64,000 nucleotides of DNA from Myxococcota bacterium (GCA_025934105.1 JAICYS010000001.1:15324-79323); one strand, 5' to 3'. Counted from the stretch's first letter, positions 2 through 62,049 are shown. The notes: a model not told the origin generated them from the sequence alone. Numbers and translations are program-made.

Positions 2-3000
2 GCCCAGGTGGCCGGAGCGCTGTCGCTCGACGACGCGGCGAAGATCATCACCCTGCGCAGCCGCATCGTCAGCCGCGCCAGCGGCCGCGGGGCGATGGTC
101 GTCGCCGAGATCGGCATGGCGCGCGCGGAGCAGCTGCTGGCGGGCGCCGGCGATCAGGTGAGCGTCGCCGCCTCGAACGCGGCCGACTCGGTGATCCTCT
201 CGGGCGATCCGCGGGCGCTGGGGGCGATCGTCGAACGGTTGCAGCGGGAAGAGGTCTTCTGCCGTTACGTGGACGTCGACTACGCGTCGCACTGCCCGCA
301 GATGGACGAGTTCCTTCCCGAGCTGGTCCGGGCGCTCGGCACGGTGAGCCCTCTCGCGAACACCGTCCGCATGATCTCGACGGTGACCGCGAAGCCGATC
401 CAGGCGGCAGAGATGGACGCCGCCTACTGGGGCCGCAACCTGCGCTCGCCGGTGCTTTTTCACGAGGCGATGCAGCTTCTCTTCCGCGAGCGCCACGACA
501 CGTTCCTGGAGATCAGCCCGCACCCGGTGCTGGCGCACGTCGTGGACCGGGCGCTGCGGCAGTCGGCGGACCAGGGTGAAGCGATCCCCAGCCTGCGCCG
601 CGACCAGGAGCCGGAGACGGCTTTGAAGTCGGCCGCCGCCGCGCTTCACGTCCGCGGCGTCGCGCTGAACTGGGGTGCGCTGGCGGCTCCCGGGCGCCTG
701 GTCGATCTTCCCATCACCCCTTGGCGCGCGGAGCGGTTCTGGCTGGAAGAGGGCCCGGCCCGGACCAAGGCTCGGGCCAAGACCGGACACCCGTTGCTGG
801 GCGACGCCTGGGTCTCGTCCGACGAGGGGCGGGCTCGGTTCTTCCAGACCGAGATCGATCTCGAATCGCTCGAATACCTGGCCCATCACCTGGTGAACGG
901 GCGCGTGGTGTTGCCGGCGGCGGCGTACTTCGAGATCGCGCTGGCCGCCGGGCGGCAGGTCGCCGGCGGCCAGGTCCGTCTGGCGGACACGGAGTTGCAG
1001 GCCATCCTGCAACTCGAGCCCGGGCAGGCCAAGACCGTCCAGCTGGTGCTGGTTCCCGAGGGGCGTGGCTGGTCGTTCCGGCTGGCGAGCCTGGACGCCA
1101 GCGGCGATTGGACCCTGCACGCCACTGGAACGCTGCAGGCCGATGACGGCGCCGCGCGTGCGCCCCTTGCCGCCGATGAGATCCGCGGCCGGTGCGCCGA
1201 GACGTTCTCGGGCGACGAGCTCTACCAGAGGATGGAAGAGGCCGGGATCTCCTACGGCGCGCCCTTTCGCGGCGTCCAGCGGGGCTGGCGGCGCGACGGC
1301 GAGTCGCTGACCGAGATCCAGGCGCCCGAGAGCGTCGCGCGCCAGTGCGGATCGTACCAGTTCCACCCCGCGCTGTTCGACGCCGCCCTGCAGTCGCTGG
1401 CGGCGGCGGGCTCGAGCCAGGGCGCGACCTTCCTGCCGGTGGGCGCGGCGTCCATCCGCGTCCTGGCGCCGGCCGAACCCAAGCTGGTCTGCCACGGCGT
1501 CCTGGCTCCTGTGCCGATCGGCACCGACGTCCTGTCGGGCGACGTCGTGCTGGCGCGCCCCGACGGCACGCCGGTCCTCGAGGTGCGCGGACTGCGCGTC
1601 CGGCGCGTCGGACGCTCGGAGGGGACGTTCGCCGACTGGCTGTACGGCATCGATTGGGTCGAGTCGACGCGCGAACCCAGCGCCAAAGGGGCGCCGGTCG
1701 CGGGCGGGCGGTGGCTGCTGGGCGGCGGCGGTCCGACCCGAAACCGGGTGGCGCAGCTGCTCGAGTCCGCCGGCGATCGCTGCCGGCCGTTCGCGTCCGC
1801 CGACGAGCTGCAGCGCGCGCTGAAAGAAGCGGTCGCCGCACAGACGGAGATCCGGGGCGTGGTCTGCCTCGACGCCCTGGACGAAGACCATGCCGAGCTG
1901 GCGCCGGGCGCCGCCCCGCCGGCTTGCCAGAGCTTGCTTGCCGCGGCCCAGGCCGTCGTCAAGGCCGGGTTCCGGACCGCGCCGCGGCTGTTCGCCGCCA
2001 CGCGCGCGACCCAGCCGGTGAACGGCGGCGACCAAGGCGGGCCCGACGAGGCCGAGGCCGGGCGGAGGCTCCTGGCCGGCGCGCCGCTGTGGGGCTTCAT
2101 CCGATCGCTGGCGCACGAGCACCCCGAGCTGCGGCCGACGGCGGTCGACGTCAGCGCCACGCCGGACGACGACGAGCTGCGCCGCCTGGCCGACGAGCTG
2201 CGCGCCGACAGCGCCGAGAGCCAGGTGGCCCTGCGCGGCCCGAGGCGCTACGTGGCGCGGCTGACGCGCCGGCGCGGCGGCGAAGCGGCGCGCGTCGCTC
2301 CCGACGGGCGGCCGTTCGGCCTGGACCTGGTCCGCCCCGGCACCTTCGAGGGTCTCGAGCTCCACGAACGGCCGCGAACCCCGCCCGGTCCCGGCGAGGT
2401 CGAGATCGAGGTGCATGCGGCCGGGCTCAACTTCTTGGACGTGTTGATGTCGCTGGGCGTGCTGCCCAACGACGCCGCCACCGGCTCGCGGCTGGGCGGC
2501 GAGTGCGCCGGCGTGGTAGCGGCCGTCGGGGCCGGCGTCGACGGTCTGAAGGTCGGCGACCAGGTCATCGGCGTCGGTCCATCCTGTTTCGCCTCGTACG
2601 TCACGCTGAGGAGCGCCCTGGTCGTGCCCAAGCCGCCGTCACTTTCGATGGAGCAGGCGGCCACGCTGGCGGTGACGTTCTTGACCGCGCACATCTCGCT
2701 TCTGCAGATCGGGCGCCTGGCCAAGGGCGAGCGGGTGCTGATCCACGCCGCCGCGGGCGGGGTCGGCCTGGCCGCGGTCCAGATCGCGCAGCAGGCGGGC
2801 GCCGAGATCTTCGCGACGGCCGGCAGCGAAGACAAGCGCGCCTATCTGCGATCGCTCGGGGTGGCGCACGTCATGGACTCGCGATCGCTCGACTTCGCCG
2901 AGCAGGTGCGGGCGGCCACCGCCAATCAGGGAATCGACGTGGTGTTGAACTCGCTGGCGGGGGCGTTCATCCCCAGCAGCTTCGATCTGCTCCGGGACTA

Positions 3001-4539
3001 CGGGCGCTTCGTCGAGATCGGCAAGCGCGACTACTACGAGAACAAGCGGCTGGGGCTTCGCCCGTTCCTGAAGAACCTGTCGTTCTCTCTCGTGAACCTG
3101 CGGGCGATGCTCGATCAGCGGCCGGCCGAGGTGCAGGCGACGTTGCGAGAGATCACGCGCCTCATCGAGGCCGGCCAGCTGCGGCCGCTGCCGATGCACG
3201 TGTTCGGGGTGTCGGAGGCGGCCGACGCGTTCCGCTTCATGGCGCAGGCCAAGCACACCGGCAAGGTGGTGGTGTCCATGAAGGACCCGGCGGCGCGGAT
3301 CGCGCGCTCGAAATCGGAGCCGCTGGCCTGCCGACTCGACGCGACGTTTCTGATCACGGGTGGCCTCGGGGGGCTGGGGCTGGAGGTGGCGAAATGGCTG
3401 GTCGCGCGGGGGGCCCGCCACCTGGTCCTCCTCGGCCGCGGCGCCCCGTCCGAAGCGGCGCACCAGACGATCGCCGCGCTGGCGGCCGAAGGGGCGGAGG
3501 TGACGGTCGAGGGCGCCGACGTGGCGCGCTCGGCGGAGCTGGCCCGCGTGCTGTCGAGCATCGCGCGCACGGGGCATCCGCTGCGGGGAGTCGTGCACGC
3601 CGCGGGCGTGCTGGACGACGGCGTGATCATCGAACAGACGCCCGAACGTCTGGGCAAGGTGCTGGCGCCCAAGGTGCACGGGGCCTGGAACCTTCACCAG
3701 CTGACCCGGCAACAGGACCTGGACTTCTTCGTGATGTTTTCGTCGGCGGCGTCGGTGTTCGGCGCGCCGGCGCAGGCCGGCTATGCCGCCGGCAACGCCT
3801 TCCTCGATTCGCTGGCGCACCATCGCCGCCGCCGCGGACTGGTGGCCCTCTCGATCAACTGGGGCGCCTGGGCCGAGGTGGGGTTGGCGGCGGCCCGGGC
3901 CAACCGCGGGCCGCGTCTGGCCACCCAGGGGATGCGGAGCCTGACGCCGGCCGAGGGAATCGCGGCGCTCGACCACTTGCAAGGGACGGACGCCGTACAG
4001 GCGACCGTGGTGCCGATCCAGGCGCGGCACTTCCGGCAGGCCAACCGCCGTTCTGCCGAATCGCCGTTCTTCGCCTATTTTCGGGAGACTGCCGCCTCGG
4101 GTGGAGAGAGCGGAACGGCCGTCAAGGAGCTGGCCGCGGCCGCCCCCGCCCAGCGCCGCCGGCTGCTGGAGGCGTTGCTCAAGCGCGAGGTGGCGCAGGT
4201 GCTGCGGATCGCGCCGGCGCGGATCGACGCGGCCACGGCCTTCGGCGATTTCGGGTTCGACTCGCTGCTGGCGATCGAGCTGCGCAACCGGCTGGAGACC
4301 AGCCTCGGCATCGCGCTGCCGACCTCGCTGCTCTGGAGCCACCGCACGATCGAGGCGCTCGCCCCCGAGCTGGCCGCCCGACTGGGCCTGGAGCTGGAAA
4401 GCGACGCCGCGCCGCTGGAATCGGCGCCGCCCGAAGCGAATCCGCCGGGCGACGCCGCGCCGCTGGACGACATGTCCGCCGACGAACTGGCGGCCGAACT
4501 GGCCCGCGAGCTGGGCGCGGCCGATCGGGGAGCCTCCAA

Positions 4540-4543
<4 letters not shown>
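2..4543 (+). CDS. Type I modular polyketide synthase, 5'-truncated by the window edge: (AT C-terminal part)-DH-ER-KR-ACP
   Basis: The frame is open from position 2 (AQVAGALSLDDA... is the stretch that follows GHSxGE in AT domains), so the listed start at 8 is only an internal GTG. Motifs seen: AT YASH (VDYASHCPQM, 281..292); DH HPLLG (788..802) plus LAHHLVNGRVVLPAAAY, YGAPF and LFDAALQ; ER LIHAAAGGVG (2738..2767); [10 protein letters not shown] (3356..3379), LDD, and Tyr in AGYAAGNAF (3782..3784); ACP GFDSL (Ser 4262..4264). An acidic docking-like tail precedes the TGA at 4541..4543. Confidence 0.93.
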
Positions 4544-11130
<6,587 letters not shown>

Positions 11131-11135
11131 GCTAG

Positions 11136-11954
11136 CTACGACTCGCAGGCGCGGCGATACATCGGCTCCCAGGTGTCGTCCCACTGGCGGACGCAGTCCT
11201 GGCGTGCCGTGGTGAAGCGGTCGAAGTCGCGGTTGAGGGCGTGGGTCCGCCCGACGTTGGTGACGTGCATCCAGGTGTCGAGCGCGTCGGCCAGCGTGAT
11301 CGGGCAGCCGAGCTGCTCGCCCAGCCGAACCATGAGCCGGGCCGCGGAGCGCCCGTAGGCGTCGAGCACGGCCAGGAACCGCGGCCCGCCGGTGTCGATG
11401 GCGCCGAAGTTCTGTTCGTACATCGCCCACGAGACCTGGGAGTGCTCCGCCTCTTCGGCCATGTGGTACAGGAAAATGTAGTAGGTCCCCGGGTGCTTCA
11501 TCCACCGGGGATCCCCGGCGTTCTCCATCACCAGGACCGACTGGACGCCGAAGGAGGCCTCGATGGCGGCCGCGACGAACGCCAGCTCCTCGGCCGCGGC
11601 GTCCATCCTGAGCAGCGACGTGTCGACGAGGTTCGGGATGCGGCCGAGGCACGGGTCGTGACGGTAGGCGCCCGAGCCGAGCGCGGTCTCGTTGACCACG
11701 TGGCAAGCGGCCGAATGGCGCGCCTCCTGGGTCAGGAATGCCTTCTCGTCGGTGACCGGCGCCTCGGACGGATGCTGGCGCCGCAGCGCGAGCAGCACCA
11801 TCTCGAAGTACTCCGCGAAGACGCTGAAGCTGAACATGCCCAGCGATTCGACCCGGCCCAGATCCGCCTCGAGCGCCGCGAACGTCTCCTTTCGCGCCGC
11901 GCCCAACACGGACGAGGGAACCTCCCGGATGCGCAGCTCCTTGAACTTCTTCAC
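11136..11954 (-). CDS. Putative diiron-carboxylate (ferritin-like / 'metal-dependent hydrolase'-type) protein, function unknown
   Basis: 272 aa when started at GTG 11954. That GTG overlaps the upstream TGA as GTGA and has GGGGAG 8 nt upstream. The track's 11993 start is also a GTG and would give a 43-nt overlap. The protein has a twofold E-x(29-36)-E-x-x-H pattern: E48 (FAEYFE) ... E77-A-R-H80 (H codon 11715..11717), and E132 (AIEASF) ... E168-A-E-H171 (H codon 11442..11444). LTQEARHSAACH and YHMAEEAEHSQVSWAMY resemble the signature helices of the Pfam 'Metal_hydrol' (PF10118-like) / diiron oxygenase families, as far as I recall them. Local GC looks slightly lower than in the PKS genes. Confidence 0.7.
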   Translation of the reverse strand: MKKFKELRIREVPSSVLGAARKETFAALEADLGRVESLGMFSFSVFAEYFEMVLLALRRQHPSEAPVTDEKAFLTQEARHSAACHVVNETALGSGAYRHDPCLGRIPNLVDTSLLRMDAAAEELAFVAAAIEASFGVQSVLVMENAGDPRWMKHPGTYYIFLYHMAEEAEHSQVSWAMYEQNFGAIDTGGPRFLAVLDAYGRSAARLMVRLGEQLGCPITLADALDTWMHVTNVGRTHALNRDFDRFTTARQDCVRQWDDTWEPMYRRACES

Positions 11955-14275
11955 GCGACGGTCTCCCCGTTCCAGTAACGCTCGCGCTGCCACGGGTAGG
12001 TGGGCAGATCGACGGGCCGCAGGCCCCGCGGGTACTGGCGCGCCCAGTCGATGCGGCAGCCGAGCGTGTAGAGACGCGCCATCGCGTCCAGCATCGCGTC
12101 GCGTGCCTCACCGCCGCCCTCGATGCTGGGGACGAAACCACCAGCCTTGCCCGGCGGCGCCAGCGCCGGCGCAATCGACAGGCCGGGGACAGACCGCGGG
12201 CTCACTTCCAAAAAGACGTCGTATCCTTGCTCGGCCGCGGCGGCCGCCGTCGGGTAGCTGGGAATGCGCGTGGCGGCGGGCGCGATCTCGCCGCGCGCGC
12301 AGACGATCCGGGCAGCCTGCTCCAGCGGCAAGGCGCCTGCCACGTGCGCGGCAGCGATCCGTCCGAAGCCGTCGCCGACGATGGCGTGCGGTTCGACGCC
12401 CCAGGCCCGCCAGAGCGAGGCCAGCGCCACCTGGAGAGAGAACAGGCAGTGGAGCTCGGCGTCTCGATCGTCGGCCGCCCCGGACGCGAGTTCCGCCAGC
12501 ACCGACGAGGCGCCCGCCTGCAAGAAGGCCGCGTCGCAGGCGGCGAGCGCCGCGCGGAACTCCGGTTCCACCTCCGCCAGCGCGCGCGCGCCGCCGGCGG
12601 ACCGTGGCCCCCGCGCCGGGAACGCGAACACCAGCCTGCGGCGAGAAGGCGCCACCCGCCCCGCCCTGACGCCCGGCCGGCCCTCGCCCCGCGCGCAGGC
12701 CGCCAGCTCCTCGCTCGCCTGGCGGGCGGAGCGCGCCACCAGCGCCAGCCGGAACTCGTGGTGAGAGCGGCGCACGTTGGCCGTGAAGCAGATCCGCCCC
12801 AGCTCACCGTCGGGCACCCCGCCGATTCGATCCGCGTAGCGGCCCGCGGCCGCCCGCAGCGCCGCCTCGCTCTTGGCCGAGATGGTCAACAGCCGCGGCC
12901 CGGCGGGCAGGATTGGCTCGTCCACCGACTTCGGCGCTTCCTCCAGCACGACGTGCGCGTTGGTCCCGTTCATCCCGAAGGCGCTCACCCCCGCGATGCG
13001 CGGCGCGCCGCCGCGCGCCCAGGGCCGACCGGTGAGCGGAATCTCGAACCGCGTCCTCTCGAAGGCGATGTTGGGGCTGAGGCGCTTGAAGTTGCGGTGG
13101 GGCGGAATGAAGCCCGCGTCCAGCGCCAGCACCGTCTTGATGATCCCGGCGATGCCCGAGGCTGTCTCCAGATGGCCGATGTTGGTCTTGATCGAGCCGA
13201 GCAGGCAGGGCGTGCCGCCGGGGGTCGGCGAGCCGAGCACCTCTTTCAACGCCTGGGCCTCGATGGCGTCGCTGAGCGCGGTGCCCGAGCCGTACGCCTC
13301 GACGTACGAGACCTGCGCCGGAGCCACCCGGGCCTGGGCCAGCGCCCGTCGCAAGACCGCCGCCTGCGCCACCGGGTTCGGGGCCTTGATCGACGCGCTG
13401 CCGCCGTTCTGGTTCACGGCGGCCCCGCGGACCACCGCGAGGATCCGATCGCCGGCGGCCTGAGCGTCCGACAGCCGCTTGAGGACCAGCGCGCCGCAGC
13501 CTTCGCTGCGGACGTATCCGTCGGCCGCGGCGTCGAACGTCTTGCACTGGAACGACGGCGAGACGATCCCGGACTTCGCGTACCCGTCATTCAGGTACGG
13601 CGACAGGTTCAACATGACCCCGGCCGCCAGGGCCATGTCGCTGGTCTGGAGCCGCAGGCTCTGGCAGGCCAGATCGACCGCCACCAGCGACGAGGCGCAG
13701 GCCGCCTCGACGGCGATGCAGGGGCCGCCCAGCTCCAGCGCGTACGACACGCGCCCGCAGGTGAAGCTCTTGCCGTTGCCCATCGCGAAGTGGAATGGGT
13801 CGCGCGCGCCGGCGGCGGCGGTCATGAATGCGTAGTCGCTGGACGAGATGCCCAGGAAGACCCCGGTCAGTGAGCGACGGACCGTCTCGATCGGCTGTCC
13901 CGCCCGCTCGAGCGCTTCGTGACACACCTCGAGCACCAGGCGCTGCTGGGGATCCATGGCCGCGGCCTCCTGCGCCGAGATCCCCCAGAAGCCGGCGTCG
14001 AACTGGTCGGCCCCGCGGATGAATCCGCCCCGATGACCCTGCCAGTCTCCCGGCCGATCGGGGGGCACCTCGCCGATCGCGTCGCGCCCGTCGACCAGCA
14101 GCTGCCACAGCTCTTCCGGACTGTCGGCGCCGGGGAAGCGGCAGGCCAGGCCGACGACGGCGATCGGCTCGTCGCGCGCCGCCTCCAGCGACTTCACCTT
14201 GGCTTCCAGCGACTCGATCGCCTTGAAGGCGCGACGCATGGCGGTCGTGGCGTCGGGTGTCGGCTTGTCAGGCAT
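11951..14275 (-). CDS. Stand-alone PKS-like protein: divergent KS (Cys-Tyr-His) plus eroded AT remnant; no ACP and no TE
   Basis: ATG at 14275 (MPDKPTPD...) overlaps the upstream stop by 8 nt (ATGCCTGA). Residues upstream of it in ORF 11951..14410 are an Arg-rich shadow. The docking coil AMRRAFKAIESLEAKVKSLEAARDEPIAVVGLACRFPG is present. KS residues: Cys in EAACASS (13697..13699); Tyr replaces His in EAYGSGTALSDAIE (13292..13294); the second His is kept in KTNIGHLE (13172..13174). AT remnant: ARGPRSAGGA in place of GQGxQWxGMG, GDGFGR in place of GHSxGE (12368..12376), and the YASH/HAFH segment is missing. The post-AT linker LPTYPWQRERYW is retained. Confidence 0.85.
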   Translation of the reverse strand: MPDKPTPDATTAMRRAFKAIESLEAKVKSLEAARDEPIAVVGLACRFPGADSPEELWQLLVDGRDAIGEVPPDRPGDWQGHRGGFIRGADQFDAGFWGISAQEAAAMDPQQRLVLEVCHEALERAGQPIETVRRSLTGVFLGISSSDYAFMTAAAGARDPFHFAMGNGKSFTCGRVSYALELGGPCIAVEAACASSLVAVDLACQSLRLQTSDMALAAGVMLNLSPYLNDGYAKSGIVSPSFQCKTFDAAADGYVRSEGCGALVLKRLSDAQAAGDRILAVVRGAAVNQNGGSASIKAPNPVAQAAVLRRALAQARVAPAQVSYVEAYGSGTALSDAIEAQALKEVLGSPTPGGTPCLLGSIKTNIGHLETASGIAGIIKTVLALDAGFIPPHRNFKRLSPNIAFERTRFEIPLTGRPWARGGAPRIAGVSAFGMNGTNAHVVLEEAPKSVDEPILPAGPRLLTISAKSEAALRAAAGRYADRIGGVPDGELGRICFTANVRRSHHEFRLALVARSARQASEELAACARGEGRPGVRAGRVAPSRRRLVFAFPARGPRSAGGARALAEVEPEFRAALAACDAAFLQAGASSVLAELASGAADDRDAELHCLFSLQVALASLWRAWGVEPHAIVGDGFGRIAAAHVAGALPLEQAARIVCARGEIAPAATRIPSYPTAAAAAEQGYDVFLEVSPRSVPGLSIAPALAPPGKAGGFVPSIEGGGEARDAMLDAMARLYTLGCRIDWARQYPRGLRPVDLPTYPWQRERYWNGETVA
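12185..12645 (-). other. Eroded acyltransferase remnant (about 150 aa, nucleophile Ser absent)
   Basis: Runs from RRLVFAFPARGPRS (about 12601..12645) to VFLEVSPRSVPGL (about 12185..12225). G634-D635-G636 (12368..12376) sits where GHS is expected. Confidence 0.8.
12935..14175 (-). other. KS domain of the orphan protein, with HGTGT His replaced by Tyr
   Basis: Runs from EPIAVVGLACRFPG (about 14135..14175) to GTNAHVVLEEAP (about 12935..12975). It also diverges at NQNGGSASIKAPN (canonical NQDGRSxGLTAPN) and has a shortened N-terminal loop (DRPGDWQGHRGGFI). Confidence 0.8.
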
Positions 14276-17200
14276 GGTCTTCTTCTGTTCGATCCAGGCG
14301 ATCCAGCTTGGCCAGCAGCGCGGCTTCGATCTGGTCGTCCGGCAGCAGGTCCGCCTCCGTCGGCGGCTCGGCCGGCGCGGCCGCCGCCTGGTTCGGCGGC
14401 GCCTCCTCATCGACGGGCGCTCCCATCAGCTTGGCGAGATAGGGCACCAGCTCTTCGATCGATCGGCTGGCCCACAACACGGTCGAGGGAAGGCGCATTC
14501 CGAAGCGGGCCTCCAGCCGATCCCGCAGCTCGAGGTCCATCAGCGAGTCGAAACCAAGAGCGTTCAGGGGGGCGGCCGCGTCGACGGCCGCGGCCGGCAG
14601 CCGCAACAACCCGGCGATCTCCGCCTTCACCTCGGTCTGCAGCCGGTGGCGTCGCTCGGACGGCGCGAGCGCCGCGAGCTCGTCCCGCAGCCGAGCAGCG
14701 GGCGCAGCCTGGGGCGCCCTCTCGCTCAGCAGCCGCGACAGCAGCGGCCAAGCGGAGGGCAGGCCGGCGGCGTCGCCCGGGCCGCGGAGCTCGAGGCGCA
14801 TCACCGCGATCTGGGGGGCGGAGAGCTCCAGCACCCGGTCCAGCGCCGCCATCGCGTCGGCGGCCGCCAGGCCCGCGTCCCAGCCGATGCTGATCGCCGG
14901 CAGCCCCGCGGCGGCCCGCAGATGGGCCAGGCCGTCCAGGAAGGCACTCGCCGCCGCGTCGCTGCCGTGCCCCGGCGATCCCAGCACCGCGCCGCTCGAC
15001 GAGAACATCACGAAAAAATCGAGCGAAGAGGTCCCGCGGGTCCGGGTGTGCAGGTTCCAGGCGCCCCGAACCTTGGGCGCCATCACCCGCTCGAGCCCGC
15101 CGTCATCGATGGCGCCGGCCGCGTGGACGATCCCGCGCAACGCCGGCATCTCCGTCCGGATCCGCTCGAGCAGCCCGGCGACCTCCCGCGGCTCCGCGAC
15201 GTCGCACCGGGCGACGACCACCTCGACCCCGCCCGCGGCGAGCTCGCCGATCGCCTGGCCGGCCTCGGGCGGCGGATCCCGGCGGTCGGCGAGGACCAGG
15301 TGCCGCGCCCCTTTCGCGACCAGCCAGCGGGCGGTTTCCAGGCCCAGCCGACCCAGTCCGCCGGTCACCAGGTAGGTGTCGCCGCCGATGGCGGGCGCCG
15401 TCTCGGCCGCGGCGATCGGCGTCTCGGGGTCGTCCATCGTGACGACGGTCAGCGGCCCGCGCTGGCCGGCGGCCGCGCCAAGCTGCGCTTCGAGCTGGGC
15501 GATCGGCACGCCGCGGACGTCGACGGCGCCGCCGAGAGCGGCGAGGTGCCCTTCGGCCCCCTGGATCGCGGCCGCCAAGCCAGCCGGCGCCTCGACGGCC
15601 AGCGCCCGCAGATCGGCGGTCAGCCGCCAGACGTTCGGCGGCGTCGGCGTGGCGCTACTCGGTCCCGCCGAGACCCAGCGTCCGAGCGGAGCCAGCAGCG
15701 CCGACCAGTTCGGGTCGGACAAGTCGTCCCAGGCGGCGCCGGTCCCGATGACGACGTCGTAGCGCCGGCCCCCGTTGGCGGCCAGCGCGTCGGCGGGCGA
15801 GCTGTCCGGCGGGATGGTGCGGAACCGCTCTCCCGGTGCGCCGCCGAGGGCCACCACGGACGCGCCGGCGGCGGCCGCGATCCGGGCCGCGGCGCGTCCC
15901 TGCGGACAGGCACCGTCGCTGATGAACACCGCTTCGCGCCCGACACGCGCAAGCCCGACGACCGCGTGGTGCGCCGCCGCGACGATCGGCAGCGTGGCGG
16001 CCGCGAGCTGCGCGCCCAGAGCGGGCGGCAAGGGGATCACGGCACCGGCGTCGATCGCGACGTGGGTGGCCGGCTCTTGCGCCACCAGGGCCACCACCTC
16101 GTCTCCGACGGCGAACCGAGCGGCGGCCGTCGGCCCGACGGCCGTGATGCGCCCCGCGCAGGCGGCGGGGCGTCCCGGCGTGCGGTCGAGCGTCGCCGCC
16201 GAGACCGCGAGCTCCACTTCTCCGGCGGCGGGCTCGCGGCGCGCGAAGGCCCGCAGGCCGTCGCCGGCGAGATGAAACGAGCGCCCGCGGGCGGGACGCG
16301 GTCGCCGATCGCCGGCGCGCGCCCGGGTCAAGCGGGCGACCCGCCGTTCGCGCCCGCGCAGCGCGATCTGGTTCTCGTCCAGGTCCGAGCGGAGCTCGTC
16401 CGCCAGGGCCGCCAGCGCGTCGGCGTCGGGCGAGGCGGGCAGGTCGACGCACGCGCACCGAAGCTCCGGGTGCTCGAGCGCAATCGTCCGCCCCAGCCCC
16501 CAGAGCGCGGCCAACGCCGGCGCGACCGGCCCGCCACCGGCGGGCTGCGCGCCGCGCGTGACCAGCCAGAGGCGCGGCGGTCGGGCCAGCTTCGCGGCGG
16601 CCACCGTCTCGACGATCGCGAGCACCCCAGCCCAGGTCTCGACGGCGCCGTCGGCGATCGCTTCCGCGCCGACGTCGGGCGCCAGATAGACAATGCCGCC
16701 GACGTCCGGGTCGGCTGACGCGGAGAGCCGGCGCACCGCCTGGGCCACGTCGGGCGAGAAGGCCAGCCGGTGGCCCGCCTCCTCGACGGGCTGGCGCAGC
16801 GCACCGGCCAGAGCTTCGTCCCCCAGCGCGACCCAGGCGTTTCCAGCGCGCGCGGGCGGCGCGGGCAGGCTCTGCGGCTCCCAGTCGACGGCGAACATCC
16901 AGTCGTCGACCAGGCGGCGCGACGGGCCTACCCGCTGGAACTGGAGGTCGCGCAGCTCGACGAAGACCTGGCCGTCCTCGCCCAGTAGCAACACGTCACC
17001 GCGCGGCCGATCGCCGCGCGCGCTCTGGTCGACAATGCACGCGTGAGCCGAGAGCGCGCCTTCGGGACGGGCCCCGACCACCACCGACCCGATCGCCACC
17101 GGCACCAGCAGCCCCGGCGCGACCGTCGAGATGGCCGCGCCGCTCGCCTGGAAGCAGGCGTCGAGCAAGGTCGGATCGACCTCGCCGGCCATGGCGCGCG

Positions 17201-20200
17201 CCGTGGGATCGGCCGGGCGGAGGCGCGCCAGCACCTCCCCCGCTCCCCCGACCACCCGGTCCAGGCGGCGAAGCCGCGGGCCGAGATCGATCCCGCCCCG
17301 CCGGATCGCTTCGTAGAACTCGTCGACCCCGACGGGCCGCGGGCAGCGCGACGCGATCGCGGCGGGCGGCTGGGCCGAGGCGGCGGCCGGCTCGCGCGCG
17401 GCGCGCAAGTCCCCGGACGCGTGGACGCTCCAGCCGGCGGCCGAGGGGCTGGCGATGCGAAACGATCCCGCCCCGCCGGCGCGTGGCGTGAACAGCAGCT
17501 GCGCCATCCGGGTCCCCTGCGCGGGCAGCTCCAGCAGCTGCTCCAGGCGAACGTTTTCGACCACGCATCTCGCGCCCCGGCCGAAGATCGCGCGGCCCGC
17601 CTCGAGCGCCATCTCGAGGTAGGCCGCCGGGGTGACGATGGCTCTGCCCGCTACCCGGTGATCGCCCAGATACGGAGACACGGCCGGCGACAGCTCGGCT
17701 TCCCAGACCCGCGTGCCGTCGGGCAGAGTCAATCCGTCGCCGGCCAGCAGCCCCTGTCCGAAGGCCATCGCCGGCCCGCGCCTTCCGTCGGTGCGGGCCG
17801 GCCAGTAGGCCTCGCGCTGCCAGGCGTAGGTGGGCAGCGACACCACGTTCCCCGCCGCCGTGAACAGCCGTTCCCACTCGACCGAGCGTCCGAGCGCGTA
17901 GAGCGACCCCAGCGTGTCCAGCAACGAGCGGCGCTCGTCCTCTTCGCGCCGTGTCGAGCCGAGGGCGGCCCCCGCCATCCCGATCGCCGACAGCGTGCTC
18001 TCGATCGACGGCGCCAGCACCGGCTGGGGGCTGATCTCCAGAAAGATCGCGTGCCCCTCACGCATGAGGCCCTCCAGCGACGGGGGGGACGGCGCCGGTT
18101 GGCGCGGGTTGGTGGCCGACCAGTACGCGGCCCCCATGAGCTCGCCCGGGATCGGCTCCGCCTTGGCCGTCGAATAGATCGGCACCCCCGCCGCGCGCGG
18201 CCGGATCGCCGCCAGCAACGCCTGAAGCTCTGCGCCGAGCGGCGGCTTCCGGCTGCGCAGCACGATGGCGCGCGCGGCGTCGGCCAGGTCCAGCGCACCC
18301 GCCACGTGCGCGGCCGCGACCTCGCCCAGGCCGTCGCCGACCACGGCGTCCGGCTCGATCCCCCACGACCGCCAGAGCGCGGCCAGCGAGACCTGCATCG
18401 CGAAGATCAGCGGGACGGCCACCTCCTCCGTCCACCGCTGCGCGGCCGCGTCCGAGGTCAACATGTCGGCGGCCGACCACCCCGTCACGGCTTCGAGGGC
18501 GGCGTCGCACGCCGCCAGCGAGTCGCGAAACACCTTCTCCGAAAGCAGTCCCCGGCCCATCCCGACCCACTGCGACCCCGGACCGGAGAACACGAAGACG
18601 ATCCGCTCCGCCGCTCCCGCCCGGAGCTCCGGGCGCGCGCCACCGACTTTCGCGGGCGCTTGCTCCTCACCCGCGGCCACCGCGCGCAACCCGTCGACTA
18701 GCTCGCGCCGGGTCGCGCCCACCACCAGGCGGCGAAACCGATGGTGGCTCCGGCGTACCGCCGCGGTGTACGCGACATCGGCCAGCGGGTGCGTGCCCTC
18801 GGCCAAGAACGCCGACCACCGCTCGGCGAGGGCCCGAAGGTCGGCCGGGCTCCGCGCAGAGATCGGCAGCACCATCGGCCGGCCGTCACCGTCGGCGGCC
18901 GCCTGTTCACCGGCGGCCGCCGGCGACGGCACCGCCTCCAACACGGCGTGCGCGTTCGTCCCCGACCAGCCGAACGAGCTCACGCCCGCGATCCAGGGCT
19001 TGCCGTCCGCCGGCCAGGCCAGCGGCTCGCGCGAGACGACGAACGGGGTGTTCTCCAGCGCGATGTGCGGGTTCAGCCGGCGGAAGTTGATCTGCGGCGG
19101 GATGATCCCGCGCGACAACGACAGCGCCGCCTTGATGAGACCGGCCACCCCGGCGGCGCCCTCCGTGTGCCCGAGGTTGGCCTTGAGCGATCCCAGGACG
19201 CAGCGGTCGCCCGCCCCGCGGCCGCGGCCCAGGACCTCCTTGAGGGCCTCGACCTCGATCGGATCGCCCAGCGCGGTTCCCGTCCCGTGGGCCTCGACGT
19301 AGCCGACCGCGGCGGGCGGGACGCCGCCGGCCGCCAGGGCGCGCTCGATCACCTCGCGCTGGGCAGAGCCGGCCGGCGCGGTGAGCCCGTTCGATCGCCC
19401 GTCGTGATTGACCGCGGTCCCGCGCACGATCGCGATCACCCGATCGCGGCTGGCGAGGGCGTCGCCCAAACGCTTGAGGACGACGACGCCGCACCCCTCA
19501 CCGCGGGCGATGCCGTCGGCGCGCGCGTCGAACACCTTGCAACGCCCGTCGCCCGCCAGGAGCTGCATCTCCAGCATCACCCGCATGACCTCGGGCGACA
19601 GCACCAGGTTGACGCCCCCCACGACGGCCAGCGCGGACTCCCGGCGCCGCAGACTCTCGCAGGCCAGGTGAACCGCCACCAGCGACGACGAGCAGGCGGT
19701 GTCGACCACCACGCTCGGGCCGTGCAGATCGAAAATGTAGGACACCCGGCCCGCCAGCATGTTGTTCGACACGCCGGTCCCGGTGTGAGACCCGACGGCC
19801 TGCGGATCGCGCGCGCAGAGCGTCGCGTACTCGCCCCCGCCGCAGGCGCCGATGAAGACGCCGGTCGCCGTCCCGGCCACCGCCTCCAGCGGCAGACCCG
19901 CGTCCTCCAACGCCTCCCAGATGCCCTCCAGGATCAGCCGCTGCTGAGGATCGATCTGGACGGCCTCGCGCGGCGAGATCCCGAACACCGCCGGCTCGAA
20001 CTGGTCGACGCCCTCGATGAAGCCACCCCAGCCGGTCGGCGCCAGGTCGGGGCTCCGCTCGAGCAGCGCTTCGGCGTCCCAGCGTGACTTCGGGACGCGC
20101 GTGATCCCGTCGACGCCGTCGAGGAGCGCGCGCCAGAGCCCGTCGGGCGAGTCGGCGCCCGCGAAGCGGCACGACATCCCCACGATCGCGATCGGCTCGG

Positions 20201-20306
20201 GCGGCTCGCGCAGGAGCTCGGCCAGCAGGCCGCGCTTTTCGGGGCCCAGGGACGCGATCAGCTTCGACAGCTTGTCGGCCGTGGAGGCTCCACCATCCGC
20301 GCTCAT
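14268..20306 (-). CDS. Type I modular PKS, module M8: KS-AT(dead, truncated)-DH(variant)-ER(dead)-KR(dead)-ACP
   Basis: ATG at 20306 (MSADGGASTADKLSKL...) overlaps the upstream TGA (ATGA), with GGAGGAG about 7 nt upstream. The KS is intact (TACSSS, EAHGTGT, NLGHTE). In the AT, GPGSQWVGMG is present, but GHSxG reads GDGLGE (18330..18338) and about 85 aa including the YASH/HAFH region are missing. DH reads LGDHRVAGRAIVTPAAY, DLGPRL instead of YGPxF, and LLDACFQ. The ER-like stretch has VFISDGACPQGRAAARIAAAAG where LIHAAAGGVG is expected. In the KR, TGGLGRLG is present but GHGSDAAASAF replaces GQxNYAAANAF (Asp codon 14958..14960 at the catalytic Tyr position). ACP is LGFDSL (Ser 14544..14546). 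Confidence 0.88.
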   Translation of the reverse strand: MSADGGASTADKLSKLIASLGPEKRGLLAELLREPPEPIAIVGMSCRFAGADSPDGLWRALLDGVDGITRVPKSRWDAEALLERSPDLAPTGWGGFIEGVDQFEPAVFGISPREAVQIDPQQRLILEGIWEALEDAGLPLEAVAGTATGVFIGACGGGEYATLCARDPQAVGSHTGTGVSNNMLAGRVSYIFDLHGPSVVVDTACSSSLVAVHLACESLRRRESALAVVGGVNLVLSPEVMRVMLEMQLLAGDGRCKVFDARADGIARGEGCGVVVLKRLGDALASRDRVIAIVRGTAVNHDGRSNGLTAPAGSAQREVIERALAAGGVPPAAVGYVEAHGTGTALGDPIEVEALKEVLGRGRGAGDRCVLGSLKANLGHTEGAAGVAGLIKAALSLSRGIIPPQINFRRLNPHIALENTPFVVSREPLAWPADGKPWIAGVSSFGWSGTNAHAVLEAVPSPAAAGEQAAADGDGRPMVLPISARSPADLRALAERWSAFLAEGTHPLADVAYTAAVRRSHHRFRRLVVGATRRELVDGLRAVAAGEEQAPAKVGGARPELRAGAAERIVFVFSGPGSQWVGMGRGLLSEKVFRDSLAACDAALEAVTGWSAADMLTSDAAAQRWTEEVAVPLIFAMQVSLAALWRSWGIEPDAVVGDGLGEVAAAHVAGALDLADAARAIVLRSRKPPLGAELQALLAAIRPRAAGVPIYSTAKAEPIPGELMGAAYWSATNPRQPAPSPPSLEGLMREGHAIFLEISPQPVLAPSIESTLSAIGMAGAALGSTRREEDERRSLLDTLGSLYALGRSVEWERLFTAAGNVVSLPTYAWQREAYWPARTDGRRGPAMAFGQGLLAGDGLTLPDGTRVWEAELSPAVSPYLGDHRVAGRAIVTPAAYLEMALEAGRAIFGRGARCVVENVRLEQLLELPAQGTRMAQLLFTPRAGGAGSFRIASPSAAGWSVHASGDLRAAREPAAASAQPPAAIASRCPRPVGVDEFYEAIRRGGIDLGPRLRRLDRVVGGAGEVLARLRPADPTARAMAGEVDPTLLDACFQASGAAISTVAPGLLVPVAIGSVVVGARPEGALSAHACIVDQSARGDRPRGDVLLLGEDGQVFVELRDLQFQRVGPSRRLVDDWMFAVDWEPQSLPAPPARAGNAWVALGDEALAGALRQPVEEAGHRLAFSPDVAQAVRRLSASADPDVGGIVYLAPDVGAEAIADGAVETWAGVLAIVETVAAAKLARPPRLWLVTRGAQPAGGGPVAPALAALWGLGRTIALEHPELRCACVDLPASPDADALAALADELRSDLDENQIALRGRERRVARLTRARAGDRRPRPARGRSFHLAGDGLRAFARREPAAGEVELAVSAATLDRTPGRPAACAGRITAVGPTAAARFAVGDEVVALVAQEPATHVAIDAGAVIPLPPALGAQLAAATLPIVAAAHHAVVGLARVGREAVFISDGACPQGRAAARIAAAAGASVVALGGAPGERFRTIPPDSSPADALAANGGRRYDVVIGTGAAWDDLSDPNWSALLAPLGRWVSAGPSSATPTPPNVWRLTADLRALAVEAPAGLAAAIQGAEGHLAALGGAVDVRGVPIAQLEAQLGAAAGQRGPLTVVTMDDPETPIAAAETAPAIGGDTYLVTGGLGRLGLETARWLVAKGARHLVLADRRDPPPEAGQAIGELAAGGVEVVVARCDVAEPREVAGLLERIRTEMPALRGIVHAAGAIDDGGLERVMAPKVRGAWNLHTRTRGTSSLDFFVMFSSSGAVLGSPGHGSDAAASAFLDGLAHLRAAAGLPAISIGWDAGLAAADAMAALDRVLELSAPQIAVMRLELRGPGDAAGLPSAWPLLSRLLSERAPQAAPAARLRDELAALAPSERRHRLQTEVKAEIAGLLRLPAAAVDAAAPLNALGFDSLMDLELRDRLEARFGMRLPSTVLWASRSIEELVPYLAKLMGAPVDEEAPPNQAAAAPAEPPTEADLLPDDQIEAALLAKLDRLDRTEEDHA
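14880..15378 (-). other. M8 KR catalytic subdomain with Tyr->Asp and Asn->Ser
   Basis: [12 protein letters not shown] sits at about 15345..15378. SSSGAVLGSPGHGSDAAASAFLDGLAH was checked on the DNA (14935..14990). The segment between HAAG and PKV is also shortened (AIDDGGLERVMAPKV). Confidence 0.75.
15440..16290 (-). other. M8 ER-like region lacking the NADPH-binding motif
   Basis: The MDR-like layout is retained (GEVELAVSAA..., AATLPIVAAAHHAVVGLARV). LxHxxxGGVG is replaced by FISDGACPQG (about 15850..15935), and there is no EIGKRD-like segment. Confidence 0.7.
18000..18610 (-). other. M8 AT remnant (about 200 aa; GDG in place of GHS; small subdomain deleted)
   Basis: Runs from RIVFVFSGPGSQWVGMG (about 18550..18600) to GHAIFLEISPQPVL (about 18000..18060). 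D658 sits at 18333..18335 and G659 (the Ser position) at 18330..18332. Confidence 0.8.

Positions 20307-32279: not shown

Positions 32280-32283
<4 letters not shown>
25873..32283 (-). CDS. Type I modular PKS, module M6: KS(NRPS-accepting type)-AT(methylmalonyl-type)-DH-ER-KR-ACP
   Basis: ATG at 32283 overlaps the upstream TGA (ATGA), with GGAGAGGG upstream. The N-terminus is short and has no coil (MSGGGQPRIAVVGMSGRFPGA). The KS Cys sits in QTACSTS (31759..31761), the style usual for KSs fed by a PCP, followed by ETHGTGT and SVGHLE. Motifs seen: AT GQGSQWIGMG, RVDVIQP, GHSLGE, YASHS; DH HPWLAQ plus LQEHRVQGVPVVAGAVW; ER LIHAASTGVG (27633..27686, one-Gly variant) with IGKRDYY; [28 protein letters not shown]; ACP LGLDSL. 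Confidence 0.92.
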
Positions 32284-41779
<9,496 letters not shown>

Positions 41780-41783
<4 letters not shown>

Positions 41784-44700
41784 TTCGCGTCAACCTCCAG
41801 CTCGTCCAGCTTCGCCAGCAACACGGCCTCCGCCTCGTCCTCGGACACGTCGGCCAGCGAGGGGCCGCTGGCCACGGCCCGTCGAACCGGCGGGCTGGCC
41901 GGGTGGGCCGGCCCGCCGCCGTCCAGAGGCAGGCCCATCTTCTCGGCCAGATGCGGCACCAGCGCGTCCACGCTGCGGTACGTGAACAGAAGGCTGGCGG
42001 GCAAGCTGACGTCCAGCGCGATCTCGATTCGATTGCGGAGCTCGAGCGCCATCAGCGAATCGAACCCCAGCGCGGCGATGCGGGTGGACGGGTGGATCCG
42101 CGACGCCCCCAGCCGGAGCACGCGCGCCATCTCGGTGATGACGTACTGCTCGAGGCGAACCCGGCGGGGCAGAGGCTCGAGCGTCTCCAGCTCGCGGCGA
42201 ACGGCGGCGCGCAGGGAGGCCGCCGAGGGGCCGGCCGCGGGCGGGAGCAGGTGTGAGAAGAACGGCAGCTCCGCCAGCTGCGGAGACGCGGCACGCCAGC
42301 GGGCCAGATCGAGGCGCGCGACCATCGTTTGGGCCGCGTCGGTGCGCATCAGGACCTCCAGCGCCGCCAGACCCTGCGCCGGCGAGAGGCTGCGCACGCC
42401 GCGCGCGTCCAGGCGGTTCCCGCGGTCGTCGCGGGCGGCGGCCAGCCCCACCTCGCCCCACGGTCCCCAGTCGACCGCCACCGCGGGCAGCCCGGCCGCC
42501 CGCCGGTGGTGCGCGAGCGCGTCGACGAAGGCGTTGGCCGAGGCGTAGTTCCCCTGGCCGGGCGAGCCGAGCACCGCCGCCGCCGACGAGAACAGCACGA
42601 AGAAGTCCAGCGGCAAGCCGCGCGTGGCCCCGTGCAGGTTCCAGGCGCCCGCGACCTTCGGATTGAAGACCGCCGCAAAAGAGTCCCACGTCGCGCGCGC
42701 GAAGGTGGCGTCGGCCAGCACGCCGGCCGCGTGCACCACGCCGCGCAGGGGCGCGTCGCGCGCCACGGTTTGCAACAGCCGATCGACGTCGTCGGGCCGC
42801 CCGACGTCGGCGCGCGCGACGCGGACGTTCGCCCCCGCCGCCGCCAGCGCGTCCAGCGCCGCCTGCGCGCGCGGGCCGGGCGGGTGGCGGCCGGCCAGCA
42901 ACAAGTGTCGGGCACCGCGCTCGACCAGGAAGCGGGCCACCTGCAGGCCGAGCCCCCCCAGTCCGCCGGTAACCAGGTAGGTCGCAGCAGGCGACAGGAC
43001 CGCCGGCGTCCCACTCACCGGCGCTGGCTTGCCCAGCCGCGCCACGAACCGGCGATGGCCGCGCCTCCCGATCTCACGCTCGGGGCCCGGGTGTCGAAGT
43101 TCGGCGACCAGCGCGTCCAGATCGGCGCCGTCGAACTGCTCGGGCAGGTCGTAACAGACGCCGCGCAGCTCCGGGTGCTCGTGGGCCAGCGTCCGCGCGA
43201 ATCCGACGAGCGGCGCGTGCGTCACCCGCACCGGGTCCCCCGCCGCGATCGCCTGGGCCGCGCGGGTCACCAGCCAGAACCGCGGCGACGACCCCAGCGG
43301 CGCAGCCGCCAGCGCCTGGAGCGCCGCCAGAGCGCCGCCCACGCCGTGGCGCTGGGCCTCCAGGATCGCCGCCGTCGAGATCGAATCGGCCAGCGCCTCC
43401 TCGTCCTCCGCCGCCCACAGATGAAGGATGCCCACCGGCGCCGGGCCCTGCTGCAGCGCCGCGGCCAGCCGATCGAGCTCGGCGCGCCGGATTCGAACCG
43501 CGGCGGCACCGGCCGCCTCGAGACGCTGGATGACGGCGCTGCCGAGCAGCCCGTCGGAAAGGACGATCCAGCTTCCGCCGGCGGGCGTCTGGTCGGCGGC
43601 GCGCGGCCGGGCCTGCTCTTCCCAGCCCACCGTGTAGAGCCAGCTCTCGACGGCCGCGGCGCGCACCCGGCGCAACCGGACGTCGATCGCCTCCATCACC
43701 AGCCGCCCGGCCTGATCGTAGACGCGCACGTCTCCCGCCGCCTCGCCGTCGGGCGCCGGCCGGCGCGCGGCGTGGACCCGACCCCGGTCCTGCAAGCGAT
43801 CGAAGACGCGCAAGGTCCCGACGCCCACCGGCAGGTACGTCGCGTCTTCCTCTTCCACCAGCGCGCCCAGCGTCTGCACGGCGGCGTCGAGCAGCCACGG
43901 CTCGATCACCCACCGCCCCGGCTCGGCGCCTTTCACCAGCAGCTCTCCCAGCGCTTCGTCCGAGCCCTGGAAGACGCGGTCGAGGCCGGCGTACCGCTCG
44001 CCATAGTCCAGCCCGCGCGCCCGCGCCTGCTCGTAGAGCTCGTTGGCGGGGATCTCGCGGGGGCAGCGCGCGCGCGCCGCCTGCAGCAGGGCCGGGTCGG
44101 CGGGCGGCGCCGGCTCCTCCGCGGCAAATCGCCCCCGGGCGTGCACCTTCCAGTCCCCGTCGTCGGAGCGGGGCGCGCTCAGCACCTCGAAGCTCTGGCC
44201 GCGAACGACGATCTGGACCGTGCCGGCGCCGGCCCTGTCCAGCGCCAGCATCTCGACCAGCTCCACCGACTGCAGGCCGCCGAAGCCACGCGCCCGCCCC
44301 GCGTGCAGCGCGGCCTCGATCCAGAGCGCTCCGGCGGCGACGGTGGCGCCGCCCACCCGGTGCTCCGAAAGGTGCGGCGCCTGCTGGACGTCCAGGTCAC
44401 CCTGCCAGACGAAGGTCCCGCGCTCGGTGGCGCTGCGATAGCCGGGGCCCAGCCAGCCGTGTCCCGCCCGCGCGGCCGGGGCCGACTCGCTGGGCGGCTC
44501 GGTCCAGCAGCGCTCGTGACTCCAGGCGTAGGTGGGGAGACTGATCTTCTTGGCGCGGCGCCCGGTCGACAGGCGCGAGAAGTCGACGTCGTAGCCGCGC
44601 GCGTAGAGCTCGCCCAGCGAGCCGAGCAGGCCGGCCAGCCCGCCGCCGTCACGCCGGAGGGACGGAACCACGGCGGCGCCGACCCGCTTGCCCGCGAAGC

Positions 44701-47217: not shown

Positions 47218-47221
<4 letters not shown>
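41780..47221 (-). CDS. Type I modular PKS, module M3: KS-AT(methylmalonyl-type)-DH-KR-ACP
   Basis: ATG at 47221 overlaps the upstream TGA (ATGA). The N-terminal coil is [35 protein letters not shown]. Motifs seen: TACSSS, ETHGTGT, NVGHLE; [28 protein letters not shown]; [31 protein letters not shown]; no ER; [25 protein letters not shown]; ACP LGFDSL. Confidence 0.92.

Positions 47222-62049
<14,828 letters not shown>

Follow-up and report, generated by a model that had tools for sequence, protein, structure and literature searches.

Organization of the locus

The 64,000-nt stretch of DNA analyzed here (hereinafter, the window; positions are counted from its first nucleotide) originates from a Myxococcota bacterium (GCA_025934105.1, JAICYS010000001.1:15324-79323), has a G+C content of 72-76% and is occupied nearly completely by a hybrid polyketide synthase/non-ribosomal peptide synthetase (PKS/NRPS) cluster. 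The present analysis concerns one gene of this cluster, denoted G, which encodes a ketosynthase (KS) with a vestigial acyltransferase (AT), and its two neighbors, the PKS gene F, which encodes module 8, and gene H, which encodes a protein of the PF10118 family. Genes and domains were identified by translation of open reading frames (ORFs) followed by a Pfam profile search of the window proteins; the additional evidence is indicated in brackets.

14268..20306, minus strand: gene F (module 8), KS-AT0-DH-KR0-ACP (Pfam and ortholog alignment)
11951..14275, minus strand: gene G, KS and vestigial AT (KS-AT0), 774 aa, no carrier domain (ORF, Pfam, ortholog)
14171..14275, minus strand: docking-type helical head of G, aa 1-35 (80% identical in the ortholog)
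12953..14170, minus strand: KS domain of G, aa 36-441, with EAACASS (Cys193), YGSGT (Tyr328) and NIGH (His368) (Pfam, alignment)
13697..13699, minus strand: active-site Cys193, TGC, kept in both orthologs
13292..13294, minus strand: Tyr328, TAC, inside VEAYGSGTALSDAIE, replacing the HGTGT histidine; CAC (His) in the ortholog
13172..13174, minus strand: second catalytic histidine, His368, CAT, within KTNIGH, kept
12641..12952, minus strand: KS-AT linker of G, aa 442-545 (PF16197, PF22621, PF22336)
12206..12640, minus strand: AT remnant of G, aa 546-690 (alignment with the intact ATs of the cluster)
11954..12205, minus strand: post-AT linker of G, retaining LPTYPWQRERYW at 11972..12007
11136..11954, minus strand: gene H, PF10118 ('Metal_hydrol') protein, 272 aa (Pfam)

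The KS part of G is a thiolase-fold KS by its Pfam matches over residues 36-396 (PF00109, E 4.9e-77; PF02801, E 3.4e-39), and the conserved lysine and the NxGH histidine are both present (K363, N365, H368). The attributes of an elongating KS of the cis-AT type that are absent from G are the HGTGT histidine, the AT serine and an acyl carrier protein (ACP) of the same module. The AT model matches only with its profile positions 1-119 of 319 (residues 549-664 of G, Pfam), the GHSxG motif has become GDGFG (12362..12376) with loss of the Ser nucleophile, the GQG motif is degenerate, and both the small subdomain and the specificity motif, aligned in the intact cluster ATs, are deleted. The protein ends 6 residues past LPTYPWQRERYW, and neither an ACP nor a thioesterase (TE) follows: Pfam detects no PP-binding match in G, and no ACP gene is located between G and the convergent PKS gene P2. 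Among PDB sequences, G is matched best by 7zma, a trans-AT KS. At the upstream side, the start of G overlaps the stop of F by 8 nt (ATGCCTGA), and at the downstream side its stop codon (11951..11953) overlaps the GTG start codon of H in a 4-nt GTGA overlap; G and H are translationally coupled. A preliminary description of this DNA, made from the sequence alone, had reported the catalytic codons, the AT remnant, the missing ACP and TE and the 8-nt overlap, all of which were confirmed by translation, Pfam and alignment. Its conclusion that the window G, which keeps the Cys and has no decarboxylation His, working AT or ACP, is incapable of normal extension stands as well.

Conservation of gene G and selection acting on it

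A search of 5.8 billion proteins yielded a single ortholog of G, P0002, an 865-aa protein from a soil metagenome with 79% identity over the aligned residues; the other matches are generic KS-AT proteins with 37-51% identity. The contig encoding P0002 (L001/L002) has the same F-G-H gene order and the same convergent PKS genes, and because this independent metagenome contig preserves the gene order, G is not an assembly artifact. On a third contig, H is followed by a convergent large gene. Further searches for orthologs yielded no locus in a metagenome scan with the H alignment, one distant sequence in a third protein search, and no match of H to plasmids by tblastn.

Codons of the window genes were compared with those of the ortholog contig by the Nei-Gojobori method (NG86; dS is about 0.5; bootstrap ranges are given in parentheses). 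The dN/dS ratio of G is 0.19 (0.13-0.26) in the KS, 0.20 in the KS-AT linker and 0.27 (0.20-0.38) in the AT remnant and the post-AT linker, and it ranges along the gene from 0.19 to 0.29, with bootstrap upper bounds not exceeding 0.38. For comparison, the ratio is 0.18 for H, 0.22 for the whole of P2 and 0.34 for the whole of F. All indels between the two genomes are multiples of three (3/3 in G and 13/13 in F), which, together with the low dN/dS, implies that G is maintained and is neither a pseudogene nor an assembly artifact. Of the hallmarks of a pseudogene, G shows none, be it a frameshift, a stop codon or a dN/dS near 1, and no stop codon or frameshift was found across the approximately 60 kb of PKS genes. 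Thus, the earlier impression that G is maintained rather than decaying was correct, and conserved synteny and translational coupling add to it. Nevertheless, compared with the elongating KS encoded by P2, the KS of G has diverged 2.4 times as much at non-synonymous sites (dN of 0.104 for G vs 0.043 for P2 in this genome pair).

The AT remnant of G is 66 aa shorter than that of the ortholog, owing to in-frame deletions of 37, 25 and 4 residues. The AT serine is gone in both proteins (GDGFG in the window, GEGVG in P0002), and the ortholog still has the C-terminal 'IPxYS...YW.RN' part of the domain, from which it follows that the erosion of the AT of G has been progressive. Conservation in orthologs had been proposed as a check on both the Tyr and the short AT. 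The Ser-less state of the AT turned out to be shared, in contrast to the Tyr and to the full extent of the shortening.

Remodeling of the KS active site

The KS of the ortholog reads DTACSSS/HGSGT/NIGH, that is, a complete Cys-His-His triad, and at position 328, 107 of 117 KS-AT homologs have His, 9 have Gln and 1 has Asn, with no instance of Tyr, so Tyr328 can no longer be regarded as a conserved feature of this protein. The replacement H328Y amounts to a single transition (TAC vs CAC). The differences between the KS domains of the two full-length orthologs were polarized against the elongating KSs of the cluster, which gave 11 window-derived and 18 ortholog-derived changes; a general acceleration of the window lineage in this domain, which was considered, is accordingly not observed. 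The three catalytic loops comprise 37 positions, and 5 of the 11 window-derived changes (D190E, T191A, S194A, H328Y and G335S) fall into them (Fisher p = 0.0015), compared to only 1 of the 18 ortholog-derived ones.

Another set of changes is common to both orthologs. W97, H119, C173, F242 and K297 are identical in the two proteins and are each found in 0 of the 117 homologs, at positions that are 85-100% conserved and are usually occupied by F (115/115), W (114/117), A (95/117), G (114/117) and T (99/117), respectively. Also shared are a 14-residue deletion after PPDR and the replacements D290N, T330S and P337A. K297 presumably occupies the position of Thr270 of FabF in the malonyl pocket. The five ancestral changes, along with the dead AT and the missing ACP in both lineages, suggest an altered KS function that was later held by selection, and the comparison points to an alteration that predates the split of the two lineages. 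The Cys-Tyr-His arrangement itself looks like a lineage-specific loss of condensing capacity and not like a designed or tuned triad, because the ortholog has Cys-His-His and the window lineage has also lost the AT and the ketoreductase (KR) of module 8.

Erosion of module 8

In the protein encoded by gene F, the active site of the AT (AT8) is GDGLG in the window (18324..18338) vs GHSLG in the ortholog (L002), and a 79-aa in-frame deletion has removed the small subdomain and the YASH motif. Both the Ser and the His of the AT are lost; the AT8 of the ortholog is intact. The catalytic region of KR8 reads GHGSDAAAS (14946..14972; Tyr replaced by Asp) vs GQANYAAAN, with deletions of 8 and 23 aa in the window vs a full-length domain in the ortholog, and in the HxxxGxxxxP motif of the dehydratase DH8 (17628..17660), canonical in the ortholog, the proline is shifted by one position in the window. 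Retained in the window are the KS8 motifs DTACSSS and HGTGT, GFDSL of ACP8 and the docking tail (14271..14354). Altogether, F carries 13 in-frame indels, which leave the window protein 125 residues shorter on balance, and evolves faster than P1 and P2 (dN of 0.165 vs 0.037 for the ACP and of 0.124 vs 0.075 for the KR). The possibility that the AT of F contains a compensated frameshift was considered and rejected, given that the DNA alignment displays a 3-nt insertion with clustered point changes instead.

Judged from these alignments, AT8, KR8 and the active center of G have degraded together in the window lineage, with preservation of the chain-holding parts and of the reading frames. The preliminary description, which had the holo-ACP of module 8 hand over a finished chain to G, overlooked that module 8 has no working AT here. 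Under the interpretation preferred below, the last extension step or steps are predicted to be switched off in this genome. The genome pair can be viewed as a snapshot of module shutdown, in which catalytic residues and whole subdomains are lost by in-frame deletion, and what survives is the KS, the ACP, the linkers and the docking elements.

Docking and the place of G in the assembly line

The remaining genes of the cluster are the following.

63373..64000 (cut by the window end), minus strand: TEII, type II thioesterase gene (PF00975, E 5e-28; GHSLG, PGDHFF)
47218..62049, minus strand: gene A, vestigial KS-AT-ACP loading unit and two fully reducing modules
41780..47221, minus strand: gene B, one module
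32280..41783, minus strand: gene C, one PKS module followed by an NRPS module Cy-A-Ox-PCP
minus strand: genes D and E, one module each
4540..11130, plus strand: gene P2, convergent PKS module KS-AT-DH-ER-KR-ACP
plus strand: gene P1, fully reducing module, cut by the window start

Every PKS protein of the cluster starts with a coiled head, and a similar acidic helical tail is found at the end of each except G, the only KS protein of the cluster without a tail of its own. Colinear pairs account for all heads and tails with the exception of the F tail, the P2 tail and the G head. Among the tails, that of B is closest to the F tail; among the heads, that of C is closest to the G head, which belongs to the B/C/E type, and B and C are a cognate pair. 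The F tail is conserved in 27 of 29 positions (counted by eye) compared with the ortholog. The proposed match between the docking coil of G and the tail of module 8 is thus plausible and modestly supported by the similarity of tails and heads. The tail of P2 (11026..11127, …LSLASDLSADALEEAVAENAGRSR) is also of the docking type and conserved, and it has no partner head within the window; it is closest to the P1 tail, whose partner is a different, P2-type head. The stop codons of P2 (11128..11130) and H (11136..11138) are separated by 5 nt, and by 3 nt in L002, so that the convergent operons have no space for terminators between them.

Neither G nor F nor P2 is followed by an integrated TE within the window, where the sole thioesterase is the TEII gene, located upstream of the first PKS gene. 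The placement of G at the end of the assembly line is unproven, and its terminal position is uncertain because the P2 tail is unpaired in the window and the cluster includes a type II TE gene. The plus-strand modules could act after G, before G or on a separate chain.

The probable partner protein H

The protein encoded by H, intact in the window, scores 35.0-35.2 bits against PF10118 (cut-off, 33.2), and all 19 relatives that were collected match this family, with the best E value of 5.7e-44. The subfamily of H is rare, comprising 5 close proteins and 14 matches among 1.84 billion cluster representatives. No characterized member of PF10118 (COG3687, IPR016516) was found in the literature, where the family is annotated only as 'predicted metal-dependent hydrolase', and neither H alone nor the 19-sequence profile matched PDB sequences; a search of NCBIfam was negative as well.

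E51, Q76, E77, H80, E132, Y163, H164, E167, E168, E170 and H171 are invariant in H and the 19 relatives, which extend down to 17% identity. The proposed metal ligands, E51, E77-x-x-H80, E132 and H164-x-x-x-E168-x-x-H171, comprise 7 of these Glu and His residues, and the pattern E/ExxH/E/HxxxExxH is typical of ferritin-like diiron sites. We take this pattern to resemble the seven-ligand pattern of AurF (AurF/CmlI). An AlphaFold2 (AF2) model of H built with the alignment of 19 sequences has a pLDDT of 93 and a pTM of 0.91 (a run with 5 sequences gave a pLDDT of 45 and was unusable). When this model was compared to known structures with Foldseek, ranks 1-36 were all taken by ferritin-like diiron proteins, namely, stearoyl-ACP desaturase, aldehyde-deformylating oxygenase, PaaA/C, R2lox and the ribonucleotide reductase (RNR) subunit R2, although none of the matches is significant; the best PDB neighbors include enzymes whose substrates are acyl-ACP, acyl-CoA or fatty aldehydes. 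By alignment, AF2 and Foldseek, the neighbor of G is predicted to be of the diiron type, in agreement with the preliminary description; the modeling supports its ferritin-like nature, and the diiron site is a prediction from the conserved ligand motif.

The genes of distant PF10118 relatives belong to operons of KS, ACP, dehydratase and ketoreductase genes in 8 of 10 bacterial genomes, where they close the operon. In Pseudomonas and Metapseudomonas (L004, L006-L009, ~2200..11650), the genes encode, in this order, LuxI, KS, flavin reductase, a 78-aa ACP, KS, MaoC dehydratase, a short-chain dehydrogenase/reductase (SDR), an acyl-ACP-desaturase-like protein, PF10118 and LuxR; in Mixta and other Enterobacterales (L010-L012, ~6600..13700), KS, MaoC, SDR, PF10118, a PF12147 methyltransferase and a phosphopantetheinyl transferase (PPTase), with an adjoining ABC/HlyD exporter. 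No thioesterase was detected among the flanking ORFs scanned in these PF10118 operons.

Comparison with known systems

The closest architectural precedents for G are the KS0-AT0-(DH)-T units of ClyE and NocP, which merely pass the chain on (PMC7923214). Like G, they keep the KS Cys and have lost the HGTGT His, although for G this is true of the window copy only, the ortholog having the His, and their AT lacks the Ser; unlike G, they contain a carrier domain of their own. Ten homologs of G of about 1000 aa, all metagenomic (P0052, P0058, P0079 and others), have the organization KS0 (Cys-Gln/Asn-His)-AT0 (no Ser)-ACP. In both contexts examined (L014/L015, 10001..13006; L016, 10001..12961), a cis-AT line has this as its final PKS gene; next comes a gene for a protein of 620-640 aa that carries a TubC_N docking domain and an SDR, followed by glycosyltransferases or a sulfotransferase, and a CylC-like halogenase is encoded upstream of it in L014. 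G resembles this family in being the last KS-bearing gene of its operon, in the AT motif (GDGVG or GYGVG in the family, GDGFG in G) and in the dedicated enzyme that follows it, as H follows G. It differs in the absence of a carrier, in Tyr instead of Gln/Asn and His in the ortholog, in the physically shortened AT, and in the nature of the next gene, which encodes a ferritin-like PF10118 protein after G and a TubC_N-docking enzyme or an NRPS after the KS0-AT0 units. Moreover, G is closer to ordinary elongating KS-ATs (46-51% identity) than to the KS0-AT0-ACP family (40-43%), which argues for an independent origin. A recent duplication of the KS-AT of module 8 was also considered as the source of G and dropped, the KS being 51.5% identical to KS8 and no closer to it than to other KSs, and the 41% identity of the AT region with AT8 being only marginally the highest.

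A KS0 hand-over is also cited for the release of enacyloxin (PMC7923214). The KS0 of enacyloxin and other trans-AT systems is similar to G as a condensation-incompetent KS involved in the hand-over of a finished chain and as a KS plus linker that ends without AT function; however, the acceptor used by a trans-AT KS0 is a defined ACP or PCP, of which there is no sign for G, and the line to which G belongs is otherwise cis-AT. The enacyloxin mechanism, studied by Masschelein et al. in 2019, is reportedly a 'dual transacylation'.

Among KS domains that release chains, the terminal KS of TAS1 is an off-loading KS. The NghhA KS performs beta-lactonization, for which the catalytic Cys and His are both required, and release by a terminal KS has been proposed for EbeG (PMC12291444); SalC provides another precedent of KS-type release (PMC11513958). 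In SalC, NghhA and EbeG, as would be the case for G, a KS ends a thiotemplate line without an integrated TE, and acyl-S-Cys is the species that is released. Unlike SalC and NghhA, G shows no evident cyclization substrate logic, one of its His residues is dispensable, and it is coupled to a diiron-type protein. A hand-over of the polyether type (KSX/ACPX) was considered and rejected: the window contains no discrete ACP, epoxidase or epoxide hydrolase, and a literature search gave no result.

With stearoyl-ACP desaturase, PaaA/C, aldehyde-deformylating oxygenase and R2lox, H has in common the set E...ExxH...E...HxxxExxH and, in its model, a helical bundle whose best PDB neighbors are ferritin-like four-helix-bundle proteins, but it has no significant sequence or structure match to solved proteins. 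The genes adjoining those of its distant relatives encode KS, ACP, DH, KR, an acyl-ACP-desaturase-like protein and flavin reductase. KS0/AT0 units that pass the chain on are known, whereas a carrier-less unit coupled to an uncharacterized ferritin-like protein is new.

Interpretation

The interpretation that we favor, with a probability of roughly 0.45, is that G is a non-extending acyl acceptor or scaffold for ACP8 that works with H, Cys-Tyr-His being a lineage-specific loss that accompanied those of AT8 and KR8. In this scenario, the head of G would dock on the tail of the module 8 ACP, the chain would move onto Cys193 of G, and H, coupled to G, might oxidatively modify the tethered chain or help to off-load it, with the final release effected by H, by water or possibly by the type II thioesterase of the cluster. 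The ancestral KS would have been Cys-His-His, and the window lineage would then have lost the His and other loop residues, so that the window G could at most be acylated.

Several points weigh against this interpretation. Neither a carrier nor any other acceptor with a thiol comes after G, which would leave a pure transacylase without an obvious recipient, and the known KS0-AT0 units all carry an ACP. The full Cys-His-His of the ortholog means that the conserved function may still be condensation, and, with only two full-length sequences, the lineage polarity rests on the paralog consensus. The Foldseek matches of H, the best with an E value of 0.14 and all with TM scores of at most 0.43, are not significant. 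Outside the window, approximately 47 kb of the source contig may encode a discrete ACP, a trans-AT, a TE module or the actual downstream partner, and the frames of F and G could stay open only because H needs translational coupling.

The most substantial of the competing explanations, which we nevertheless consider rather unlikely, is that G is by origin a condensing KS (one half of a split module or else an additional KS drawing on AT8 and ACP8), that the ortholog is still one, and that in the window F and G are early-stage relics kept open mainly through the coupling to H. The canonical DTACSSS/HGSGT/NIGH and the intact module 8 of the ortholog agree with it, the joint loss of AT8, KR8 and the active-site loops of G in the window lineage fits it well, and so do the fast evolution and net shortening of F and the GTGA overlap of G and H. 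What agrees less well with it is that five near-universal KS positions changed in the common ancestor and were then fixed, and that the AT of G is dead and the ACP absent in both lineages; against it are also that the window KS evolves no faster than the ortholog outside the catalytic loops (11 vs 18 changes in the KS as a whole), that the F tail and the G head are strongly conserved, and that the PKS genes are free of stops and frameshifts. Far less probable still is that the Tyr codon reflects an error of sequencing or assembly, with TAC standing for a genuine CAC, and that G has Cys-His-His like the ortholog: a single transition in what is apparently an assembled contig of an uncultured organism would be compatible with it, but the same loops carry four more window-specific changes (D190E, T191A, S194A, G335S) and module 8 shows many independent inactivating changes, a pattern for which one wrong base would not account.

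Two further alternatives correspond to candidate roles named in the preliminary description. G might be a KS-type off-loading catalyst that, as shown or proposed for SalC, the NghhA KS and the terminal KS of EbeG, holds the chain on Cys193 for an intramolecular attack (lactonization or a reaction of the Dieckmann/aldol type), in line with the missing integrated TE after G, F and P2, the preserved Cys193 and His368, the remodeled pocket (e.g., T297K and G242F) and published precedent (PMC12291444, PMC11513958). We regard this as improbable: the NghhA KS needs Cys and His, and in G one His is dispensable in one lineage; the ortholog module 8 has DH and KR, and no beta-hydroxy nucleophile would therefore be expected; the cluster has a type II TE gene; and the tight coupling to H remains unexplained. 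A slightly smaller chance is given to the fusion of two chains, with G acylated by the minus-strand line and catalyzing a non-decarboxylative condensation with a saturated P1/P2 chain. The conserved P2 tail that lacks a partner in the window lies directly opposite G-H, the minus strand has its own loading module and G is tailless, all of which would suit such a role; yet the P2 tail resembles the P1 tail with its P2-type partner head, the head of G belongs to the B/C/E type, neither a base residue nor a carboxylase that would serve a non-decarboxylative Claisen reaction can be discerned, and the start of the plus-strand line, with or without a loading module, falls outside the window.

Returning to G as a non-extending acceptor or scaffold, a more specific version of this proposal is that G and H form an undescribed device for off-loading or end-tailoring, in which a chain on the KS Cys or on a KS-scaffolded ACP8 would be oxidized by the PF10118 diiron enzyme (desaturation, hydroxylation or oxidative decarboxylative release). 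At this level of detail, the proposal is doubtful. If true, it would make PF10118 a new oxygenase family acting on KS- or ACP-bound substrates, also in Pseudomonas and Enterobacterales with their small type II KS/ACP operons. Even in the general form, cooperation of G and H would represent a route of termination or tailoring without a thioesterase, reductase or condensation domain, and would provide the first functional handle on PF10118, which is recurrent beside KS and ACP genes. The module shutdown seen in this genome pair bears on the origin of KS0/AT0 'pass-through' modules and of AT-less architectures. For genome mining, it suggests caution: an odd catalytic residue in a single sequence needs to be checked against orthologs before a mechanism is claimed. 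The lack of conservation of Cys-Tyr-His lowers the interest of the locus; the conserved G-H pair, the ancestral remodeling of the KS and the shutdown snapshot sustain a moderate interest.

Other features of the cluster

Between the TEII gene and gene A, a 355-aa ORF on the plus strand (62254..63321) encodes a saccharopine-dehydrogenase-type NAD(P)-binding domain and overlaps a 298-aa minus-strand ORF without a family match. Exact-protein look-ups of this 355-aa ORF and of G retrieved no further contig, and exact 60-mers from the window start had no match in genome and metagenome contigs.

The first ~190 aa of the product of gene A (~61480..62049, minus strand) are a heavily shortened KS remnant without the Cys (…RIDAPAMQVVAAAIHAI…), followed in the loading unit by a KS-AT linker, an AT with the motif GQSIG (61003..61026; Gln in place of the His, with the Ser retained) and an ACP. 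This remnant is the second case in the cluster of a vestigial domain retained in frame.

In gene C, the Cy domain (~35022..36266) contains the heterocyclization motifs FPLTDIQQAYWVGR and DLLTVD, and the nitroreductase-type oxidase domain Ox (~32844..33380) sits inside the A domain. The Cy-A-Ox-PCP organization predicts a thiazole or oxazole in the middle of the chain.

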